A stretch of DNA of 64,000 bases. Source: Roseateles agri. GTDB lineage: Bacteria > Pseudomonadota > Gammaproteobacteria > Burkholderiales > Burkholderiaceae_C. Positions 52,252-62,852 of the stretch are shown here, piece after piece. The stretch lies in assembly GCF_034043675.1 (NCBI RefSeq), contig NZ_JAXCLA010000007.1:452547-516546 (forward strand). The letters run 5' to 3'. The first letter of the stretch is position 1, and every line of letters begins with the position of its first letter. The notes below the pieces were generated by a model. That model saw nothing but the letters and a program-made list of their open reading frames with translations, made no database searches and had not been told where the DNA came from. Position numbers and translations under genes: made by a program.

Positions 52252-52325
52252 TGGAGCGGGTGATGGGAATCGAACCCACGTAGTCAGCTTGGGAAGCTGA
52301 AGTTCTACCATTGAACTACACCCGC
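52252..52325 (-). tRNA. tRNA-Gly(CCC)
   Basis: Reverse complement GCGGGTGTAGTTCAATGGTAGAAC-TTCAGC-TTCCCAA-GCTGA-...GGGTTCGATTCCC...CACCCGCTCCA. Confidence 0.9.
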
Positions 52326-52540
52326 ACTTGCATTTCCCGTTGCAGATCAACGGGTTAGGCGTCAAGTCCTTGATTCAGCGTAGGTTTTTACACCTGCGGG
52401 CCAAAATCTACTACCTGTCCGGACTTGTCCGTAACAGGGGGCTCTTGTCGCCTTGGCGTAGCATTGGCGTAACTTTTTTGAGGGCCGGCTCCCAGGTCCG
52501 GAAAGTTACGCCGCTGCGGCGCCGGGACGAGTATAGGGCG

Positions 52541-53836
52541 ATGCGTTTTGATCCCAATGCGGCCAAGCTGCTCAAGCCTGGCCAGCACCTGCTGGTGGAA
52601 GGCTGTGACGGTCTGAGGCTGGAGGCAAGCGCCTCGCGCAAGAGCTGGATCTACCGGTACAAGAGCGTTGCGGGCACCATGCGGCAGACCAAGCTCGGGC
52701 AGTGGCCAGCGATGCCGATGGCGGCCGCGGTGTCGGCATGGCAGGCGCTTGTCGACGTGCGCGCCGCTGGACAGGACCCCAAGGCCGTCAACCGCCGGAA
52801 GCCGACCACCGAGCTGGCCGGCTACGCGGTGCGCCGGCTCGTCGACGACTACCTCGATGGCCACATCGAGCACAACCGCAAGCCCGCCGGCGTCACGGCC
52901 GCCAGGCGAGCGCTGACGACGCTGCTGGACGAGGAACGCGTCTTCGCGAGCATGCAGGCGGCCGAGGTCACCCGATCGCTGGCGTTCGATCTGCTGGAGG
53001 CGCGCAAGAGCACGCCGACGGCCGCCACCAAGCTGCGTTCGATGCTGGCCAGCGCGTGGGACTACGCGCTCGATGCCGGCCGCCTCGGCGAGGACTCGCC
53101 AAACTGGTGGCGCCAGGTCCAGCGCGGCCGGCTCAAGAGCAAGGGCAAGATCGTCGGCGGTGAGCACCAGGGGCGCGCGCGGCGCGTGCTGTCGCCGGCG
53201 GAGATCTCGCAGCTGCTGGCCTGGCTGCCGGCGATGCATGAGGTCGGGCGCGACGCGACGGTGCTCTACCTGTGGACCGGCGTGCGCGGCTCGGAGATCT
53301 TCTCCCTGCGGCCAGAGCACCTGCAGGAGGAGCGTGGCGTGTTGTGGTGGGTGATCCCGAAGGCGCTGACGAAGAACGCGCACCACGAGTTCGCCGTCGA
53401 CCTGCGCGTGCCGCTGTTCGGTCGGGCGCTGGACGTGGTCAAGCGGCGAGCGGCCGCGGTGGGGAAGTCAGGGGCGCTCTTCGAGGACGAGAAGGGCGAG
53501 CAGTACACGCAGAAGGCGTTCTCGACCTACGTCTATGACCTGCAACCGTACAGCGCCAAGGCCCGGCGCATGGAAGGCCGGCGCCTCACCGTGCCGGTGA
53601 CGGGCTGGACGCCCCACAACCTGCGTCGCACGGCCCGCACGCTGCTGGCCAGCCTGAAGTGCCCCAAGGAAGTGGCCGAGGCGATGATCGGCCACTTGCC
53701 CGAGGTGATGGACGCGACGTACAACTCGCACAGCTACGATGCCGAGCGGCTGCTGTGGCTGAAGCGCCTGGCTGCGCATCTGGAGAAGCTGGCCAAGCAT
53801 CAGCCACCGGTCGACGGCTTGCCGGCGCGGCCGTAG
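52541..53836 (+). CDS. tyrosine-type site-specific integrase (phage P4-like)
   Basis: C-terminal catalytic residues (R...HxxR...Y) around HNLRRTARTLL. Confidence 0.85.
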   Translation: MRFDPNAAKLLKPGQHLLVEGCDGLRLEASASRKSWIYRYKSVAGTMRQTKLGQWPAMPMAAAVSAWQALVDVRAAGQDPKAVNRRKPTTELAGYAVRRLVDDYLDGHIEHNRKPAGVTAARRALTTLLDEERVFASMQAAEVTRSLAFDLLEARKSTPTAATKLRSMLASAWDYALDAGRLGEDSPNWWRQVQRGRLKSKGKIVGGEHQGRARRVLSPAEISQLLAWLPAMHEVGRDATVLYLWTGVRGSEIFSLRPEHLQEERGVLWWVIPKALTKNAHHEFAVDLRVPLFGRALDVVKRRAAAVGKSGALFEDEKGEQYTQKAFSTYVYDLQPYSAKARRMEGRRLTVPVTGWTPHNLRRTARTLLASLKCPKEVAEAMIGHLPEVMDATYNSHSYDAERLLWLKRLAAHLEKLAKHQPPVDGLPARP

Positions 53837-54063
53837 CCTGCGCCCTTGGGTGGCGCCAGGTCGGACACCGGGCGCGTCAGCGCGAACTCCCGCAGATCCT
53901 GCACCAGCCAGCCGGTGCGGTTCGCGCTGATCTTGCGGGGCTTGGGCAGCGCGCCGGAGTTCACGAGCACGTCGATCGTCGACAGGGACACCGACAGGAA
54001 CGCCGCGGCTTGCGGCTTGGCCAGGAACATGGGTTCCAGGGCGATGATGGTTTCAGCAGCCAT
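53800..54063 (-). CDS. AlpA-family phage transcriptional regulator / excisionase
   Basis: HTH LSVSLSTIDVLVNSGALPKPRKI. Confidence 0.6.
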   Translation of the reverse strand: MAAETIIALEPMFLAKPQAAAFLSVSLSTIDVLVNSGALPKPRKISANRTGWLVQDLREFALTRPVSDLAPPKGAGYGRAGKPSTGG

Positions 54064-54952
54064 TGACGGCCTCCTGCGCGCCGGCGTCGATCGCCGGCGA
54101 CGTTGAAAACAGCCCGCCACGGCTGGCATCGAGCGCAGCGCTGCAGGCGGGGTTGAGCCAGACCACTTCGGTCCGGTGACTCGTGCCGCGGCCGCCGCTG
54201 ATGCGAGCGGTCGTTTCGTGGCGATTCCAGGCCTGCAGCGCGCCGTCGTACAGGCTTGACGCATAGCCGCAGAGGATCACCATGCCGTCGACGGCGAGCA
54301 GCGCGTCGATCAGGCGGCGGTGGCCAGCGTCGTCGAGCTCGTGACGGTAGCCGCCCTTGTTCCGCATGTGCCGCGTGGCGTGCACGTACGGCGGATCGAC
54401 GAAGTGCAGCGTGTCGGGCCCGTCGTGGGCCTGGATGACGGCGATCGCCTCGCGGTTCTCGATCAGGACGCCGGCGAAGCGCTCGCCGATCGCCGCGATC
54501 GAGTCGGGGTAGGCCGCCCAGTTGTGCTGGGCGGTGCCGTACTTGCGGCGAGTGTCCGTGCGGAAGCCCGTCGTGGCCTTGGTGGCGCCGGCGCTGCCGA
54601 ATCCCATCGCCGCGCGCACGCAGGTGCGCCGGGCGCGTTCTAACGCGTCGTCGGTGGGCTGATAGCTGCCGTCGAACTCCTCGCGGGCGTAGGGCGTGAG
54701 CCGGCAGGCTTCGACCAGGTCAGCGCGCATGGCTGGATCCCGCACCACGCGAAAGAAGTTGACGATGTCCCCGTCGAGGTCGTTGTACACCTCGGCATAG
54801 ACGCGCGGCTTGCGCAGCAAAACTCCGGCCGCACCGCCGAAGGGCTCGACGTAGCAGCCATGGGGGGGCATGAACTGCAGGATCCAGGGCGCCAGGCGGA
54901 ACTTTCCGCCGTGGTAGCGCAGGGCTGGACGGGTGACGGTTTCAGCGGCCAC
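54053..54952 (-). CDS. Dam-family N6-adenine DNA methyltransferase (D12 class)
   Basis: Motifs YHGGK, EPFGGAAGV and DPPY. GTG start. Confidence 0.8.
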   Translation of the reverse strand: MAAETVTRPALRYHGGKFRLAPWILQFMPPHGCYVEPFGGAAGVLLRKPRVYAEVYNDLDGDIVNFFRVVRDPAMRADLVEACRLTPYAREEFDGSYQPTDDALERARRTCVRAAMGFGSAGATKATTGFRTDTRRKYGTAQHNWAAYPDSIAAIGERFAGVLIENREAIAVIQAHDGPDTLHFVDPPYVHATRHMRNKGGYRHELDDAGHRRLIDALLAVDGMVILCGYASSLYDGALQAWNRHETTARISGGRGTSHRTEVVWLNPACSAALDASRGGLFSTSPAIDAGAQEAVNGC

Positions 54953-55349
54953 CGGGTGTCTCCTCTTGCAGATCCGCTTTGGCTGCGCGCAGTTGATTGC
55001 GCCATCCTGGACCGCGCAGGCTTACCTCGTGAGTGCGCGGTCCTCGCAACCAGAGTGAGTAAGACACGCGGCCATTGGCCAGCATGTCGATGCGATGCGA
55101 CAGTTCGGGCCGAACGAGCCCGAACTGCGGCGGGAACCACCAGTGGAAGCGCGATGCCTCGACCTCCTCGAGGTAGCCGCCCCACAAGATCAGCCGCACA
55201 GCGATCGCCGGGTGGGTGTGATAGCAGCGGGGCACATCGGCGCGCACGAACTTGTGCAGCTCAAGCCGCCAGCCGCGGAAGCTGGCCAGGTGCTTGATCC
55301 ACATGATGGGCTCGCCGGCGACCGTACCGATCCACTGGTCCCAGTTCAT
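54942..55349 (-). CDS. hypothetical phage protein (135 aa)
   Basis: ORF in the prophage operon with an 11-nt overlap. Confidence 0.45.
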   Translation of the reverse strand: MNWDQWIGTVAGEPIMWIKHLASFRGWRLELHKFVRADVPRCYHTHPAIAVRLILWGGYLEEVEASRFHWWFPPQFGLVRPELSHRIDMLANGRVSYSLWLRGPRTHEVSLRGPGWRNQLRAAKADLQEETPGGR

Positions 55350-56077
55350 GAGGCATCTCCCACTGGCGTACGCACAGCTCGTCGGTCGAATGCCCGCAGC
55401 GCCGGCGCGAGTGTGTCGGGCAGCACGGCCCAAGCGACGTAGAACTCGGCGCCATGGAGCCGCGTGCCGGCGAAAGAACGAAAACCCAGGAACTCGCCGT
55501 CCTCGCTGCACCAGCACGGCGCCATGATGTGGAAGCCATCGCAGGGGTTCAGCAGCAGGCAGTCTCGCGTGTCGCGTGGCGGGATCTCTGACGCTGGGCG
55601 GAAGTCAAGCACGAAGTGCGGCGCCAGGCTGACGAAGCGCTCGCCGTACTGCTCGACGGCGGCAAGCAAGTCGCCGATGCCATGCCCGGGGGAGAGTTTC
55701 CGTGCCTCGGCGCGCACGGTGTTCCACGCCATTGCGATGGAGTTCTCATCCCAGATCCGCGGCTGTTCGGCGACTCGCGCCGGCAGTCCGCGCTCTCTGA
55801 CCGGTGCTGCGCTCGGAGTCACTGAGATCCCGCGATAGATGCCCATCAGCGTCTTGTCCGAGATGGTGCTGATGGCACCGAACTGCTCGGCGAGCGGATG
55901 CTTTGCCGCGACCATCAGAGCGCCGATGTGGTCGGGCGGGTACAGGTCGCCGTTGACGACGGTGTAGCCGAGCTGCATGAGCTCTTCCAGAGCATGCGTC
56001 TTCAGGAAGTCGTCGTGCGTCGACACGTCGCCGGACTGGGCGTAGCTCGGGTCTTGTCGCTTTGGTGAGTGCAGCAT
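55346..56077 (-). CDS. hypothetical phage protein (243 aa)
   Basis: ORF; ATGA coupling. Confidence 0.5.
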   Translation of the reverse strand: MLHSPKRQDPSYAQSGDVSTHDDFLKTHALEELMQLGYTVVNGDLYPPDHIGALMVAAKHPLAEQFGAISTISDKTLMGIYRGISVTPSAAPVRERGLPARVAEQPRIWDENSIAMAWNTVRAEARKLSPGHGIGDLLAAVEQYGERFVSLAPHFVLDFRPASEIPPRDTRDCLLLNPCDGFHIMAPCWCSEDGEFLGFRSFAGTRLHGAEFYVAWAVLPDTLAPALRAFDRRAVRTPVGDAS

Positions 56078-56799
56078 CAGAAAAGTCCTTCCTGCTGAGG
56101 CGTCGTTGCCGGCGCCGGTGTGTTTGCGAGGTGATGGAGGATCCAGGCCTGCACGGCCTGGGCGGCTTCGAGGTAGGCGGCGCTGGGCGTGCCCTTGACT
56201 TCCTGGCCAGGCACGTAGGTGCGCCAGATCCGGTCGCGCAGGTCTTTGGGCAGGGCGTACCAGTGGCGCGTGCAGCCCCACATCGCCGGCGGGCACTGAG
56301 CGGTGCAGCCGGGCCAGTGGCAGTGATGCTTGCGCGTCTGGCCCTGGCTCTTGACGTAGGCGACCTTGTGGCTGACGCCGGCGAGCACGCTGGATGGGAC
56401 ACCGAAGAAGCCGAGGCGGCCGCCGTACGGGATGAGCCGCTCGAAGGCCTTCGCCTGGTCGAGCACGAAGCCGTAGGGCCCGAAGAAGTACTCGCTCGGG
56501 TGTTGCTTCACGCAATCGGTGATGACGGCCTCGCCGACGATGCCGCCGACCATCGACTCGCGGTCTTCGGGGTAGCCGAGGTGCCGCCAGGATTCGAGAT
56601 CGTCAAGGTGATCGCGCTTGCTGTACGTCACGCCGGCGTGGATCAGCACGCGGCCGCGGAACTTGGTCGACCAGGTGCGGTTCTCCACCGGCTTGATGCA
56701 GTGGCTGATGAGCCACGCGTAGGGCTGGCGGACCGACAGGCAGGGGATCATCTCCTCGGCCAGGTCGGCCCCATCGCGATCGAACTCGGGCGGCCTCAT
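56077..56799 (-). CDS. ASCH-domain protein with a C-terminal Cys/His-rich region
   Basis: ASCH signature LSVRQPYAWLI. Confidence 0.6.
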   Translation of the reverse strand: MRPPEFDRDGADLAEEMIPCLSVRQPYAWLISHCIKPVENRTWSTKFRGRVLIHAGVTYSKRDHLDDLESWRHLGYPEDRESMVGGIVGEAVITDCVKQHPSEYFFGPYGFVLDQAKAFERLIPYGGRLGFFGVPSSVLAGVSHKVAYVKSQGQTRKHHCHWPGCTAQCPPAMWGCTRHWYALPKDLRDRIWRTYVPGQEVKGTPSAAYLEAAQAVQAWILHHLANTPAPATTPQQEGLF

Positions 56800-57851
56800 G
56801 GCGTGGGCCCGATCGGAAAGCCGTTGTGCTCGATGCCGTCGAGCAGGCGGCCGGCGGTCTTCTTGCCTGGTCGGATCAGGCCGCGATAGGCCACGCCGTC
56901 CACCATGTCGTCAGGGTCGGTGACGAAGTGGCCGGCCAGGCTGATGAAGCCGTCGTGCTTCGCCAGTTCGGCATTGAACTCAGGGTCGCCCTCGCGTGCG
57001 ACGAGCGGCTCGGCCATGCCGCTGTCGACCTCGATCCACTCGCCCCACTGCTTGAACAGGAAGGGCACGTCAGGGCGCGTGCACTGATCGCGCAGGCTGC
57101 GTGCCCAGTCCGGATGCATCGGCCGGGCCTTGGGGCCGCTCTCGCCGCCGGCGATGATCCAATTCACTGCTGGCACGTCGTCTGCCGGCACGCCCTCGTC
57201 GTTCACGCATTCCGTCGTGCCGATGAGTGGATAGATCTCGGCGTCCCCGCCGCAGACCTGGATGCGGGTCAGATCGATGGGCCCGAGCATGGGTTCAATC
57301 GACAAGAACCTCATGTGCGCCGGCGTGGCCAGCAGCTTGGGGATGTCGCGGTCGGCCTCGGCCTGGTTGACGGCGGTCGCGCCGAGCCAGACATTCGGCC
57401 ATGGCCAGGCCGCGAAGGGCACTGAGTAGCCGATGTCGAGGTCTGCGATCGCGGCCTTGATCATGGCCTCGGCGTTGCCGATACGCTTGGTGAGCAGCAG
57501 CCAGTCGAGCCGCGGTGTCTTGCGGATCAGCTCGAACAGGTCGGCACGCCAGGCTGGATCGACCTGGTTGTCGAACACGTCGGCCAGCGATGCGCAGAAG
57601 ACGCGCCGCCGGCGGCCGTGCTCGCGTTCGAAGGCGTCAGCGCCGAGGTTCCAGGCGACGGGCTTGCGCCAGTTCGCGACGCTCGTCCGCCGGCGTGGAG
57701 CGCCCGGGCCCCAGTTCACGGCTTGGCCGCCGGCGTACCGTGCGTTGCGGTTCTCGGCGTAGCAGTTGTCGCAGCCGGGGCCAGCGTGCTGGCAGCCTTC
57801 CCATGGGTTGAAGGTGCTGTCGCACCATTCGATGTTGCTGCGGTCAGCCAT
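56796..57851 (-). CDS. phage Gp37/Gp68 family protein (DUF5131)
   Basis: N terminus SNIEWCDSTFNPWEGCQHAGPGCDNCYA. Confidence 0.75.
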   Translation of the reverse strand: MADRSNIEWCDSTFNPWEGCQHAGPGCDNCYAENRNARYAGGQAVNWGPGAPRRRTSVANWRKPVAWNLGADAFEREHGRRRRVFCASLADVFDNQVDPAWRADLFELIRKTPRLDWLLLTKRIGNAEAMIKAAIADLDIGYSVPFAAWPWPNVWLGATAVNQAEADRDIPKLLATPAHMRFLSIEPMLGPIDLTRIQVCGGDAEIYPLIGTTECVNDEGVPADDVPAVNWIIAGGESGPKARPMHPDWARSLRDQCTRPDVPFLFKQWGEWIEVDSGMAEPLVAREGDPEFNAELAKHDGFISLAGHFVTDPDDMVDGVAYRGLIRPGKKTAGRLLDGIEHNGFPIGPTP

Positions 57852-59805
57852 GGCACACCTCCTCTCCTTGGGCCAGCATCAGCGCCGCGGCGACGGGCCG
57901 CACCCAGACCGGCGCAGCGCTGAGCTGGAAGGTCTCGCCGGCGTCGGCCAGCATCAGCGTGCGCAGCATCTCGTCGGCGATCGCGCGAGCCGATGCGCGT
58001 GGCACCGCGTTTCCGATGCGCTCGCGCCAGGCCTGGTCGCTGGTACCGTCGAGCTGGAATGCGGCCGCCTCGATCGGGTCTTCGGGGTCGAACAGGCTTT
58101 GCAGTGCGGCCAGCTCCAGCGTGGTGAAGGGCCGGTGCCACGTGTTGTCCTCAGCGAGGATGTGGGCGACGAGGCGATCGTTTGCAGCCGGCATGGCCGC
58201 GACTTGCACCAGATCGCAAACTCGCGGATCCGCTACCGACCAGCGGCCGTTGTCGTGGCACGCTGCCGCGCTGACTGCGCCGCAACTGCTGGACCAGGGC
58301 ACGACGCCGAGGTGGCCACCCGTCAGGTAGGCGGCGCGATCCGGCGACATACTGGTGCGCGGGTCGGCGACCGCGTAGGCGCCGCAGTCGTCCCCTGCGA
58401 TCACCGTTCCAGAGCTGCCACCCCATCCCGCCACTGGGTACTTCGTGAACAGGCGACCCTGAGCTGTCGGCCGCGGGTCTGCGACGGACAGATGGCCGCC
58501 TTGGACGCCCTTGCCGCCGGCGGTGACCGTTCGGCTCGTGTCCTCGAAGCCGGCCACGTGCAGGTGGCCGTGGCGGCCGTCCCAGGCCGGTCGCGGATCG
58601 GCAAGCGCCTGGCCAGTCCCGTGCGCGCTGGTGACCGCCATGGCCGAACCCGACCATCGGACGATGCGGAACTCGTTCGAGTGCTTCGCCGGCCCGGTGT
58701 GCCGCGGATCGGCGACGCTGTAGGAACCCTGACCAGGCCCTTGCTGACCAGCGATCGCGCCCGTCGAGTCTTCCCAGCGGCGCACGCCGTAGGCCTGCCC
58801 ATCACGCCAGAGTGCGCGCTGCTGGAATCGGACGTCGGCCACCGAGAAGGTGCCGTTCATCGGCAACGACTGTCCGGCCACGACGCCGGTGGAATCCTCC
58901 CAGCGGCGCACGCCGAGTCCGCCGTTGTGCATCGCCGGCACGATCAGGTAGTCGCGCAGCACGCCGTCTTCCACAGCCAGCCGGTTCAGGCTGCGCCAGT
59001 CCTTGCCGGCCTCGACGAAGGCCAGGCGCACCCAGGTCTTCCAACTGAGCTGCGGCACGCGGTGCATCGGCCCGGCCGTCAGATCGCCGGGTAGCGGCAT
59101 CTTGCTGAGTACGTCGCCCACGGCACGCAGCGGCCGGCGCGGCGGCTCGTACAGCAGGTTCGGCACCTTGGCGATGTGTCGGGCCACCAGCAGGAAGCGC
59201 TTGCGGCTCTGCGCCAGGCCGCCCAGCTCGCCGCAGTCGTGCGTGGTCTCGGCCACGGCGTAGCCGTAGGCGCGGAGCATGGCCGAGATCTGATCGAGCA
59301 GCGCGCGGCCGCGCGTGGCCAGGCGCGGCACGTTCTCGAACAGGATCAGTTCGGGCGGGTCGTCGGCCCAGGCCTCCAGGGTGAGCCAGACGCCGCGCAG
59401 CGTGAGCCGATTCAGCGCCTGGTACTTGGCCGTCAGGCTCTTCGCCTGCGACAGCAGGCCGCTGAAGCCCTTGCACGGCGCGGACAGGAAGACCGCGTTC
59501 GGACGGCGGAAGCCCGCGGCTCGACGGATGTCGTCGGGCGTGGCCTCGCGCCATCCGGGTGGCGGCTCATGGCCGTGATAGGCCACGTACTGCTCGCGGT
59601 CCATCAGGTCCATGTCCGTGGCACGCGTGCCGACCAGGCGCGCGAAGTCGCGGTTCGCGGCCGGGTCGACGTCGACGCTGCCCAGGCATTCCCAGTGGCC
59701 ATCCAGGCCGCCGACGTTGACGTGCGAGTCCTTGAAGCCCAGTGCGCCGCCGCCAATGGCACCGAACAGGCAGAAGAAGGTCTTGACGATCGGGGCGAGT
59801 TTCAT
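57844..59805 (-). CDS. DNA (cytosine-5) methyltransferase with six tandem ~40-aa repeats in the target-recognition region
   Basis: Motifs I (LFGAIGGGALGF), IV (PCKGFS), VI (ENV), VIII (QSRKRF), IX and X (GNAVP). The repeat is W-DS-G--AGQ...SVADPR. Confidence 0.85.
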   Translation of the reverse strand: MKLAPIVKTFFCLFGAIGGGALGFKDSHVNVGGLDGHWECLGSVDVDPAANRDFARLVGTRATDMDLMDREQYVAYHGHEPPPGWREATPDDIRRAAGFRRPNAVFLSAPCKGFSGLLSQAKSLTAKYQALNRLTLRGVWLTLEAWADDPPELILFENVPRLATRGRALLDQISAMLRAYGYAVAETTHDCGELGGLAQSRKRFLLVARHIAKVPNLLYEPPRRPLRAVGDVLSKMPLPGDLTAGPMHRVPQLSWKTWVRLAFVEAGKDWRSLNRLAVEDGVLRDYLIVPAMHNGGLGVRRWEDSTGVVAGQSLPMNGTFSVADVRFQQRALWRDGQAYGVRRWEDSTGAIAGQQGPGQGSYSVADPRHTGPAKHSNEFRIVRWSGSAMAVTSAHGTGQALADPRPAWDGRHGHLHVAGFEDTSRTVTAGGKGVQGGHLSVADPRPTAQGRLFTKYPVAGWGGSSGTVIAGDDCGAYAVADPRTSMSPDRAAYLTGGHLGVVPWSSSCGAVSAAACHDNGRWSVADPRVCDLVQVAAMPAANDRLVAHILAEDNTWHRPFTTLELAALQSLFDPEDPIEAAAFQLDGTSDQAWRERIGNAVPRASARAIADEMLRTLMLADAGETFQLSAAPVWVRPVAAALMLAQGEEVCHG

Positions 59806-60434
59806 GCGCGGCTCTCCCGGCTGGACAGGGCCGTGGTGGTGGGCGCCCAGGCCGCGACCTTCAGGTCGCTATCGATTCCTTCGGCCGCCAGGCCGCTGGC
59901 TCCTGATTCCTTTCTCATGGCCGCAAGGCCACTAGACAAGACTTCCGTCGCGGACGCGGTTCGGTCGAGCCATTCCTCATCGGTGGCGCGGTCGGCCTCG
60001 GGCACGTCGGATTCCATACGGGCCATCAGGTCGAGTAGGGCCCGCAGCTCCGTGGCAAACATCAGGGCGATCGCGGCCAATCGCTTGCTCTCTTCGCTCG
60101 TCGCCTCGACCTTCCCCCCGCCCCCCTTCCCGTGTGGGTCCCGTCCAGCGGCTGGCGAGGCGGGAGTGACGGCCAAAACTTCGCCCGCGAACGTGAAGCG
60201 ATCGTGGTGCGCGAGCACTGCGGCGAGCGTCTTCTTGTCGGCGATCTGCACGTCCAGGCGCATGCCGTTCTCGCCGATCAGGAACAGGCGTCCCTCATGC
60301 GCGCCGGGGAAGGGCAGGAAGTGCCCCTGATCCGTGCCTTGAGCGGTGACGCGGAAGGCGACAACGGCGGTGAGCGCAGCCGCCACAGGCGTGAGCGCGC
60401 GCATCCAGTCGATGGCAGCTTCGGGCGCGCTCAT
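59802..60434 (-). CDS. hypothetical phage protein (210 aa)
   Basis: ORF. The upstream in-frame extension was rejected. Confidence 0.45.
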   Translation of the reverse strand: MSAPEAAIDWMRALTPVAAALTAVVAFRVTAQGTDQGHFLPFPGAHEGRLFLIGENGMRLDVQIADKKTLAAVLAHHDRFTFAGEVLAVTPASPAAGRDPHGKGGGGKVEATSEESKRLAAIALMFATELRALLDLMARMESDVPEADRATDEEWLDRTASATEVLSSGLAAMRKESGASGLAAEGIDSDLKVAAWAPTTTALSSRESRA

Positions 60435-60751
60435 TGCTGCGGCTCCTTGGCTCGCTCTGCTGCCCCGTCGGCCGAGATGGCGAAGTTGATCGCCTTGATC
60501 GTTGCACCCAACGACGGCGACGCCGCGACGATGTCGTTCTCCACGATCTGCCCGAAGATGGTGTGGAAGACCCGTGTGAGGCCCGGCGTTTGATCCGGCA
60601 TGGCAATCAGCAACTGATCCTTGAATGCGCCGGGAGCGATGCAGCGGTAGGCGACCAGGCCATGCCATGGCGCGCCTTCTTGGACCAGAACCGCCTGCAC
60701 GCCATCGGTGAGTTCGAGAGTGATCGCCTCGATCTTCTTGGCTTTCAGCAT
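60431..60751 (-). CDS. hypothetical phage protein (106 aa)
   Basis: ORF; start MLKAKKIEAITLEL. Confidence 0.4.
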   Translation of the reverse strand: MLKAKKIEAITLELTDGVQAVLVQEGAPWHGLVAYRCIAPGAFKDQLLIAMPDQTPGLTRVFHTIFGQIVENDIVAASPSLGATIKAINFAISADGAAERAKEPQQ

Positions 60752-60938: not shown

Positions 60939-62852
60939 TTACGCGGCCTCCTTGGTGAAGTCTTCAAGGCGCGCGCCGGCGGCGATCGCGGCCTTGAGCC
61001 ACGCGGGCTGAAGGCCGCGGCCGCTCCACGTTTCTCCGGTGGCGGCGTTGCGATACTTGACCTGGCCGGGCTTGGCCGGCGCATGAGCGGCGGCGAAGGC
61101 GTCGCCGGCGGCGTTCTTGCCCAGGCGTTCGTCTTCCTCGGCCTGGATCTGGCTGCTGGCCTCCTTCTCGGCCTCAGCAGCGAGTGCCGCGACCTGGTCG
61201 GCCACGCCCAGCTCGGTGGCGATGGTCCACGTGGGCTCGCCGTCGTAGTTGCTGGCCTCGATGTCCTCCAACGTGTAGGGATCGGTCAGTTCCTCGGCCA
61301 TCAGCACCTGGGCCAGCAGCGTGCCGAGGAGCCTGCCGTCTTCCATGTTCACGATGCGATGGAGGAAATCCCGCTCGGCCTTGGCCCGCTCGGCCGAAGA
61401 CATGAACGTATTCGCCGGAGGGATGTCCCATCCGTGGGCGCGATAGATCAGCGCGGTCGCCTCATAGGTGAGATCGCCCGCGAGCTGGGCGACGGCGAGC
61501 CGCAGAGCCGCCAGCGGCAGGCCCTGGGTGTTCATGCGCTCCAGCAGCAGCGTCTGCGCGCGGACACCGAAGAGCTTGCAGGCCCGTTCGCCACGCATGG
61601 CCGCGAGGGTCTGCTCGCTGCGCGGCTGCGGCGCTGCCGGCGACGCGCTGCTGGACGGGGCCTGTACGGCCGTCGCCGCATCGCTCAGCGTCGGCTTCGG
61701 CGGCGGTGCAGGTGTCGGCGCCGCCGGCGGACGCAGCAGGTTCTTGCTCTTGAGCAGCTTGCGCGCGTCCGTCTCGGGCACGATGCGCAGGATCTGGCCG
61801 CTGGGGCCGTGCTCCAGCGTGATGACGCCGCGCTGCTTGGCGCCGAAGATCTCCGACAGGATGCGCTTGTCCGCCGTCAGGGTGGGCGCCGGCTGGTCGA
61901 ACCACAGGTGCCCGTTCGGCAGGGCCGTCGGCTTGGGCATCAGGGTGATGGCGGCAACGCCGCGCAGCACCGTGTGGCCTGCCGCTTCGGCCTCGGCGAA
62001 CTTCAGCTCCCACGTCTCATGCTGCTTGGCGCGGAAGCAGGCGCTGTCCTGGCACATGTCGCCTTGCTTGACGTCGTCGAACAGATCCGGGCTCGCGCCG
62101 CTGCGCTTCTTGCAGTCGCTGCAGGGGCCGGCGATCTGGAACACCGCGCGGATATCGAACGGCGCGAGCGACAGGTCCAGCATGAACTCCTTGCGCAGGA
62201 ACTCGGCCGAGGCACGGAAGCTCAGCGGCTCACCGCCGAAGCCTTCCAGGATGCGCTTGAGCGCGCTGCGCTGCTGGTCCTCGTTCGGCATGCGGGCGAT
62301 CAGGCCGGCGACGCTGGCGTTCAGCTTGTCGTCGAGGAAGGCCTCGCGGGCCGGCTCGCACAGATTCAGCAGCGACAGGCGCAGGTAGATCCAGCGCTTG
62401 CTCTTGCCGATCTTGGCCGCCAGCTCCTCGACGCTGGCATAGCCCTGCATGCCTTCGCCCGGGTGCAGCAGCTTCTGCAGGCCCTCGGCCTCTTCGAGCG
62501 GATGCAGGTCATCGCGGTCGATGTTCTCCAGCAGCTGGATCTCCAGCGCCTCGAAGTCGGTCAGGTCGCGGATCAGCGCGAGGATCGTGGGCTTCTCCGC
62601 TTGCTTGCTGGCCCGCCACCGGCGCTCGCCGCAGACCAGTTCATGCGGCGGCTGGCCGTTGCCGTCGTGCCAGGCCGGATTGCGGCGAAGCAGCACGGGC
62701 TGGATCACGCCGTGCTTCTTGATGCTCTCGGCCAGTTCGTCGATCTTGGCCTGCTTGAAGCGCTTGCGCGGGTTGGTCGGGCTCGGCGCGATCAGGCCGA
62801 GCGGTACGTAGACCGCGGGTTCGGTCTTGTGCTCGATGGTGCTCATGCGCAC
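60939..62852 (-). CDS. ParB-like nuclease domain protein fused to a C-terminal H-NS-like DNA-binding domain
   Basis: ParB N-terminal motifs (VQPVLLR, GERRWRA). C-terminal H-NS motif TGETWSGRGLQPAWL. Confidence 0.75.
   Translation of the reverse strand: MRMSTIEHKTEPAVYVPLGLIAPSPTNPRKRFKQAKIDELAESIKKHGVIQPVLLRRNPAWHDGNGQPPHELVCGERRWRASKQAEKPTILALIRDLTDFEALEIQLLENIDRDDLHPLEEAEGLQKLLHPGEGMQGYASVEELAAKIGKSKRWIYLRLSLLNLCEPAREAFLDDKLNASVAGLIARMPNEDQQRSALKRILEGFGGEPLSFRASAEFLRKEFMLDLSLAPFDIRAVFQIAGPCSDCKKRSGASPDLFDDVKQGDMCQDSACFRAKQHETWELKFAEAEAAGHTVLRGVAAITLMPKPTALPNGHLWFDQPAPTLTADKRILSEIFGAKQRGVITLEHGPSGQILRIVPETDARKLLKSKNLLRPPAAPTPAPPPKPTLSDAATAVQAPSSSASPAAPQPRSEQTLAAMRGERACKLFGVRAQTLLLERMNTQGLPLAALRLAVAQLAGDLTYEATALIYRAHGWDIPPANTFMSSAERAKAERDFLHRIVNMEDGRLLGTLLAQVLMAEELTDPYTLEDIEASNYDGEPTWTIATELGVADQVAALAAEAEKEASSQIQAEEDERLGKNAAGDAFAAAHAPAKPGQVKYRNAATGETWSGRGLQPAWLKAAIAAGARLEDFTKEAA

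Follow-up and report, generated by a model that had tools for sequence, protein, structure and literature searches.

Enzymes that methylate cytosine at carbon 5 ordinarily carry one target-recognition domain (TRD), and the question raised by the locus described here is what such an enzyme does when six units occupy that place. The locus lies in a stretch of 64,000 nucleotides of Roseateles agri (contig NZ_JAXCLA010000007.1, positions 452,547 to 516,546; hereafter the window) and encodes a C5-cytosine DNA methyltransferase of 653 amino acids (aa), in which an array of six different modules of ~40 aa each takes the slot of the single TRD. We consider it probable, from sequence comparison, that the protein is a multispecific orphan anti-restriction 5-methylcytosine (m5C) methyltransferase whose one catalytic core is served by six alternative recognition modules. 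The methyltransferase identity of the protein, its six units, and the modularity and turnover of such units throughout its family are direct observations.

Catalytic core and unit array of the window protein

The original prediction of a C5-cytosine methyltransferase is confirmed by Pfam, PF00145 matching the protein at 45.4 bits against a cut-off of 22 (E 9.6e-12), over aa 102-210 only; TIGR00675 scored 38 bits, under its cut-off of 100.65. A database entry, 'DNA cytosine methyltransferase [Paucibacter sp. R3-3]', is 100% identical to the window protein. Motifs I, IV, VI, VIII, IX and X were all found in canonical order and are invariant or nearly so across homologues, and the variable region opens with a non-repeat conserved stretch that holds the invariant residues W255-K-T-W...D269-W-R-S-L in the homologue alignment. 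Judged by profile, motifs and the fold of a homologue, the protein is a C5-cytosine DNA methyltransferase, and it has the same ten-motif framework and fold as ordinary enzymes such as M.HhaI, M.HaeIII and Dcm.

Between motifs VIII and IX lie six consecutive units of 37-45 aa (aa 285-528, window 58222-58953). The array is thus located where it had been predicted, although the span first given for it (58225-58914) was slightly narrow, and the peptides quoted at the time are exact. The units share the pattern ...(Y/L)G V x x W x x x x G (T/A) V x (A/G) ... G x x x V A D P R and end in (V/L)AD(P/V)R, which is VADVR in unit 1, LADPR in unit 3 and VADPR in units 2, 4, 5 and 6. Aligning the repeats with each other had been proposed as a check on the prediction; on local alignment, 14 of the 15 unit pairs score 4-23 standard deviations over 300 shuffles, the exception being units 3 and 4. 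A profile hidden Markov model (HMM) of the unit finds exactly six matches in the protein, a count that is not independent, since these units were in its training set.

Identity among the six units is 30-58% in protein and 52-60% in DNA, the VADPR codons vary synonymously from unit to unit, and Tandem Repeats Finder reports no DNA-level repeat across the array. The units are old, diverged protein repeats maintained by selection and not recent duplications. The units had been described as closely related and the enzyme as possibly hypervariable; with these values the first description does not hold, and a hypervariable locus with a diversity-generating mechanism was rejected, because Tandem Repeats Finder gave nothing relevant and the units are so diverged in DNA.

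A large family with a variable number of units

A word-indexed search gave relatives of the window protein in over 6,800 clusters (90% identity); in an exhaustive search with clusters at 50% identity, 1,122 had an E-value of 1e-3 or less and 465 one of 1e-30 or less. They come mostly from Proteobacteria, including Paucibacter, Achromobacter, Bordetella, Herbaspirillum, Comamonas, Pseudomonas, Sinorhizobium/Ensifer, Agrobacterium, Rhizobium, Mesorhizobium and Thalassospira; one member is from a Crocinitomicaceae metagenome-assembled genome. Phage homologues detected by tblastn include those of phiCTX (orf41), Dobby, LKA5, H66, PP9W, Achromobacter CF418P1, Marinobacter PS3 and Sinorhizobium PBC5. 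A literature search on phiCTX and F116-like phages, and on 'multispecific' enzymes outside Bacillus, found no characterisation of this family, which is a very large and so far undescribed group of orphan methyltransferases carried by prophages and mobile elements.

Scored with a 42-position profile, the 120 closest homologues (57-78% identical) have five units in 53 cases, six in 47, seven in 17 and eight in three. Across 286 complete-looking members of the family the number runs from 1 to 11 (2, 7, 8, 15, 95, 77, 44, 20, 11, 5 and 2 proteins, in that order), five or six being most frequent. Unit number therefore does vary among homologues, another of the checks that had been suggested, and the arrangement is not the unusual one it was taken for: 5-7 units are the norm among thousands of homologues. 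One- and two-unit members are rare (P0176 and P0193 have one good unit), and their nearest relatives are multi-unit proteins.

Some homologues are much longer for another reason. In P0126, P0162, P0171 and P0209 (937-1203 aa) the extra ~400 aa are an intein and not an N-terminal fusion, with a Hint domain and a LAGLIDADG homing endonuclease at roughly aa 113-515. Past the intein, similarity to the window protein picks up at aa 108-109 of the latter, which places the insertion at or beside catalytic motif IV (SAPCKGFS).

Unit types, architectures and turnover

Clustering by normalised BLOSUM62 alignment score sorts the units into discrete types with sharp consensus, about 12 in the close homologues (the letters A, B, C and so on are labels from clustering the units of these 120 proteins) and 35 with at least five members family-wide. 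The window protein has the architecture A-C-D-H-G-B and its nearest relative (78% identical) A-C-D-E-B; A-C-F-E-B, A-J-D-E-B and A-C-J-D-H-G-B are found among further close homologues. There are 56 distinct architectures in the 120 close homologues and 167 in the 286 family members. The order of types is mostly, though not strictly, collinear, 35 of 190 co-occurring type pairs being found in both orders. Type B, found 214 times and in 211 of these at the end of the array, is the near-constant final unit of the family, and the first unit is mostly of one type family-wide, type A leading in nearly all close homologues. A recent exchange of modules across strongly diverged backbones was rejected: no near-identical interior units were found where catalytic domains are less than 62% identical.

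The same type is hardly ever used twice in one protein. Among interior units we observed no duplicates at a distance of 0.4, against 56 +/- 7 expected, and four at a distance of 0.5, against 92 +/- 8, the expectation being obtained by dealing interior units at random, which ignores relatedness and slot preference, so that the contrast is overstated while its direction is clear. Architecture differs in 46% of the pairs whose catalytic domains are at least 95% identical and in 81% of the pairs at 90-95%; the unit array changes faster than the catalytic core. Discrete types, rare duplication and varied combinations are, on this comparative evidence, the signature of modular TRDs.

Anatomy and predicted structure of a unit

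We compared column entropy overall and within types for 1,676 units aligned to the profile. In nine columns all types agree (V15, W18, V25, G34 and V38-A-D-P-R42), columns 17 and 19-21 are freely variable, and columns 2-12 and 28-36 keep their residues within a type but change from type to type, with a mean within-type entropy of ~0.5-0.9 bits at the type-specific positions. The pattern of columns 2-12 and 28-36 matches what would be expected of specificity determinants. The two type-specific segments, made up of about the first 11 residues and of a loop of 8-9 residues before VADPR, flank a constant strand-(T/A)V core; in M.HhaI, two recognition loops stand on either side of a conserved Thr-Leu.

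An AlphaFold2 model of the window protein, computed with 45 six-unit homologues, is confident for aa 1-236 and 600-620 and has a predicted local distance difference test score (pLDDT) below 50 for aa 237-562; at this low confidence, unit 2 shows three short strands, at GVRRW, AIAG and YSVA. The homologue P0176 (490 aa, with one degenerate and one good unit), modelled with 148 diverse sequences, reached a pLDDT of 81 overall and of 71-92 in its counterpart of the conserved aa 211-284 stretch, but here too the good unit (aa 332-380) stayed below 50. Low unit pLDDT may mean that the units are flexible until they contact DNA, or that alignments of repeat arrays are inadequate for such models. Foldseek matched the P0176 model to DNMT1, MET1, ZMET2, M.HhaI and M.HaeIII at E 1e-14 to 1e-11. 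Sequence searches of the PDB with the window protein and with the family profile gave no match, and P0176 gave a weak match to the catalytic motifs of DNMT1/MET1 only, with its stretch equivalent to motif IX aligned by HMMER to motif IX of MET1 in a weak second domain. An alignment of SVADPR of P0176 to SVTDPQ just ahead of motif IX was too weak and was not used.

Relation to known methyltransferases

Among the closest known systems are M.BssHII and the Bacillus-phage group (M.SPRI, M.Phi3TI/M.SPbetaI, M.Rho11sI and M.H2I). Temperate phages of Bacillus array several TRDs in one polypeptide, and both a 2025 EcoSal review (PMC12707154) and an earlier one (PMC5923457) assign such arrays to them only; the role of these enzymes is protection from many restriction enzymes (PMC12707154; PMC5923457), a role that the window enzyme would share. 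Both kinds of enzyme are orphan and phage-borne, with one core and several contiguous ~40-aa modules between motifs VIII and IX, and in both the modules are unlike each other within one protein and are recombined among relatives. The layout of a module is also alike by eye (an aromatic residue, x(4-6), G-x-x-T-(L/V/I), a Gly-rich loop and a strand). M.SPbetaI (phage SPBc2) and its family, including M.SPRI, have 2-5 modules of ~40 aa, for example KRVYSPEGLSPTLTTMGGGHREPKIA and RRFKENGEPAFTVNTIDRHGVAIGE. About 2-5 modules are usual in characterised Bacillus-phage enzymes, in agreement with the variable regions examined here. At the motif level only, a unit also resembles what we take to be the TRD core of M.HaeIII and M.HhaI, W/Y..P..T(L/I/V)..(Gly-rich loop)..HP.

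The catalytic domains of the window and Bacillus-phage enzymes, in contrast, belong to different C5-methyltransferase lineages. The arrays of the window family are larger (mode 5-6, up to 11) and much more regular, with VADPR at the end of every unit and a constant unit at either end of the array; its hosts are Gram-negative; and multiple specificities are proven for the Bacillus-phage enzymes but putative in the window family. To our knowledge, the arrays of the window family are larger than those of any characterised enzyme. The window protein is, by sequence, an analogue and not a member of the SPR/phi3T/SPbeta group. The principle of the multispecific array was already known; what is new here is an unrelated, highly regular cassette in a large undescribed family.

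A second family of proteobacterial phage enzymes bears tandem units as well. Decewicz et al. count among its members Sinorhizobium phi2LM21_p23, two Paracoccus enzymes (JCM7686_0772 and JCM7686_2655), the Aeromonas ARM81 enzymes and the enzyme of Rhizobium phage RR1-A. In RR1-A gp60, ARM81ld_p31 and phi2LM21_p23 we found tandem units of 32-42 aa centred on (D/E)-P-x-x-T-(I/V/M)-T-A, nine of them in RR1-A gp60 at a spacing of 32-42 aa (median pairwise z 2.7, 47% of pairs >3) and, counted by eye, ~5 in ARM81ld_p31 and ~6-7 in phi2LM21_p23. In the text examined, the publications on RR1-A-type enzymes mention neither a TRD array nor a repeat array. Like the window enzyme, these proteins are large orphan C5 methyltransferases encoded in the replication or early modules of temperate proteobacterial phages. 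RR1-A-type enzymes have ~550-700 aa and a different unit consensus, without VADPR. The best blastp match between the window protein and RR1-A gp60 has E 0.36, no relation beyond the general fold, and among the matches listed, the tblastn phage matches of the window protein have no record in common with those of the RR1-A family.

The two Paracoccus enzymes have been cloned and tested, and partial protection was reported at 16 of 28 restriction sites, namely AGCT, GGCC, CCWGG, CCNGG, GCGC, CCGG, CCSGG, CAGCTG, ACGT, CTCGAG and others, with 12 of the 28 unprotected, including CGCG, GATC, CATG, CTAG and GANTC (PMC3925955 and its supplement). The authors speak of relaxed specificity (PMC3925955; PMC6536676). 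The Paracoccus enzymes are placed in this family by the identities stated in the publications (PMC3925955; PMC5537653) and not by a sequence comparison of our own. The protection result shows that large repeat-bearing m5C enzymes of proteobacterial phages can act on many sites; it is equally the main support for a rival explanation, that of one relaxed specificity.

Weighing the explanations

We read the array of the window protein as a set of recognition modules because it occupies the TRD slot and because its units fall into discrete types, with near-absent duplicates, combinatorial architectures and rapid turnover. Each module would be a self-contained recognition element, its scaffold combining a hydrophobic strand with a terminal W, a strand with (T/A)-V, a Gly, and VADPR as strand plus turn, and its type-specific segments placed like the recognition loops that flank the conserved Thr-Leu of ordinary C5 methyltransferases. 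The modules would take turns at the one shared catalytic core (motifs I-VIII and IX-X), and several unrelated short motifs would thereby be methylated. The array would be made at replication of the phage or element, one gene would pre-empt many host restriction systems, and lineages would shift their spectrum of protection by gain, loss or swap of whole modules. We infer that every unit works as a TRD, with several of them or all six active, and that their role is anti-restriction. The original suggestion of a multispecific enzyme that evades restriction is thus strengthened by the family-wide evidence of modularity and weakened by the absence of detectable similarity to the proven TRDs of Bacillus phages.

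Several points weigh against the multispecific reading. The unit HMM has no match in M.SPbetaI or M.HhaI, and hhalign aligned the unit profile to 188 Bacillus module segments without significance (P 0.8), placing W over Y and TV over TL; because of this, the likeness to proven TRDs is one of position, size and motif-level resemblance. The units were left unfolded by AlphaFold2 in both models, which lend the module reading no structural support and do not contradict it either. The near-constant first and last types could be structural and not recognition modules, and with 155 of the 190 type pairs found in a single order, the scarcity of duplicates could partly reflect ancient slot-specific divergence. 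Inert 'pseudo-domains' are said to have been described in Bacillus phage enzymes by Lange et al. in 1991, and by analogy some units of the window protein may be of that kind. In the literature searched, no enzyme of the window family with a measured specificity was found. In the other family, phi2LM21_p23 was inactive in E. coli (PMC5537653).

The array as a whole might instead form one loose DNA-binding surface that reads a short or degenerate context such as CC or GC, with unit variation tuning affinity. The only tested large m5C enzymes of proteobacterial phages have been described in this way, all 16 affected sites being partial (PMC3925955; PMC6536676), and the constant first and last units of the window family would agree with it. 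However, the tested enzymes belong to the other family, discrete types, near-absent duplicates and whole-unit swaps would be unexpected if units added generic affinity, and the division into protected and unprotected sites, with none of CGCG, GATC and CATG protected, is at least as compatible with a set of motifs as with one degenerate context; we regard a single relaxed specificity as unlikely. Another explanation is that the array has mostly decayed, leaving a monospecific enzyme with a single working TRD, for example the constant last or first unit, and inert pseudo-domains or spacers for the rest. The nearly universal type of the last unit and the rare members with one good unit, P0176 and P0193, speak for such decay, as would the reported inert pseudo-TRDs of Bacillus phage enzymes. 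Yet conservation within each interior type is strong and the types recur in Alpha-, Beta- and Gammaproteobacteria, a sign of purifying selection on every unit, and arrays of 5-7 units are the norm and are not shrinking, all of which makes decay quite unlikely in our view.

A third possibility is a cooperative repeat reader, in which solenoid or TALE-like units would follow successive base pairs of one long target, or would bind a protein partner. The regular period of ~40 aa, the constant scaffold with variable positions and the varying copy number are what such a protein would have. But AlphaFold2 predicted no repeat-domain fold, a C5 methyltransferase flips one cytosine beside its catalytic cleft, so that a reader of 6-11 units would need targets tens of base pairs long, for which there is no precedent and which would be of no use against restriction, and the order of units differs among close relatives; a reader of this kind is highly improbable.

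Genomic context

The locus lies at the early end of a prophage or an integrative element, in line with the prophage origin first suggested: tRNA-Gly(CCC), the probable integration site, is followed by the integrase gene and then by phage early genes (Table 1). The tRNA and integrase genes form the left end of the element (52252..53836), the gene to their left encodes a host acyl-CoA dehydrogenase, and the right end lies beyond the window. No restriction endonuclease gene stands beside the C5 methyltransferase gene, either here or in a Bordetella hinzii prophage and a Pseudomonas element, whose homologues are also in early regions. The Bordetella hinzii prophage has D12-class methyltransferases near its C5 enzyme too.

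The DUF5131 gene starts 8 nt ahead of the methyltransferase stop, an overlap that suggests translational coupling. As a conserved functional partner the DUF5131 protein was rejected, since its gene is absent beside the Bordetella and Pseudomonas homologues; RR1-A also encodes a Gp37/Gp68 protein (L007 31993-33018). The combination of ParB and H-NS domains in the 637-aa protein is an unusual fusion in a prophage early region. Two stretches of ~1 kb, 54953-56076 and 59806-60750, are without an open reading frame (ORF) of the high third-position GC typical of the genome.

Table 1. Features of the locus, by position in the window; the last three rows give genes of the second phage family in their own records. 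The evidence for all six units is pairwise alignment, unit profile HMM, type clustering and DNA comparison.
Feature	Position	Strand	Details
tRNA-Gly(CCC)	52252..52325	-	adjoins integrase gene
Tyrosine integrase	52328..53836	+	phrog_1, PF00589, Arm-DNA-bind_3
D12-class (Dam-like) N6-adenine methyltransferase	54053..54952	-	second orphan in element
ASCH-domain protein	56077..56799	-	
DUF5131/Gp37-Gp68 protein	56796..57851	-	downstream of C5 methyltransferase
C5-cytosine DNA methyltransferase gene	57844..59805	-	653 aa; ORF, PF00145, database identity
Motif X, GNAVP	58000..58014	-	aa 598-602; sequence and homologue alignment
Motif IX, HRPFTTLELAALQ	58099..58137	-	aa 557-569; sequence and homologue alignment
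Linker ahead of motif IX	58138..58221	-	aa 529-556, 28 aa
Unit 6, type B	58222..58356	-	aa 484-528, 45 aa
Unit 5, type G	58357..58470	-	aa 446-483, 38 aa
Unit 4, type H	58471..58590	-	aa 406-445, 40 aa; contains TVTAGGKGVQGG
Unit 3, type D	58591..58701	-	aa 369-405, 37 aa
Unit 2, type C	58702..58827	-	aa 327-368, 42 aa
Unit 1, type A	58828..58953	-	aa 285-326, 42 aa; ends VADVR
Non-repeat conserved stretch opening the variable region	58954..59175	-	aa 211-284; invariant alignment columns
Motif VIII, QSRKRF	59194..59211	-	aa 199-204; sequence and homologue alignment
Motif VI, ENV	59329..59337	-	aa 157-159; sequence and homologue alignment
Motif IV, SAPCKGFS	59461..59484	-	aa 108-115, catalytic Cys111; all 8 residues invariant in homologue alignment
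Motif I, FCLFGAIGGG	59746..59775	-	aa 11-20, AdoMet-binding FxGxG; sequence, conserved in two homologue alignments
Hypothetical ORF, ~209 aa	59802..60431	-	stop overlaps methyltransferase start; no Pfam match
ParB-N and ParB HTH protein	60939..62852	-	637 aa; H-NS C-terminal DNA-binding domain at aa 598-632
RR1-A gp60	41579..43672 in L007		
ARM81ld p31	338..2002 in L008		
phi2LM21 p23	314..2158 in L009		

Implications

The family may be a natural combinatorial library made up of dozens of autonomous ~40-aa cassettes, each specific for one short motif and built on a VADPR-ended scaffold, with a core that uses one of them at a time; we put this idea forward tentatively and with some doubt. If it is true, a single enzyme could have as many as 11 specificities, a number that no characterised methyltransferase reaches, and the code that links unit type to motif could be read from homologues differing by one unit and reused for designer multi-site m5C writers.

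If the units work as recognition modules, one prophage gene would protect against 5-11 restriction specificities. The carriers of such genes are thousands of proteobacterial prophages and mobile elements, among them those of Pseudomonas aeruginosa, Achromobacter, Bordetella and rhizobia, in which the protein is annotated only as 'DNA cytosine methyltransferase'. The multi-TRD principle would then extend well beyond Bacillus phages and could account for the broad 'relaxed' protection conferred by other large phage m5C enzymes, and it would have a bearing on phage therapy and on the transformability of the hosts.

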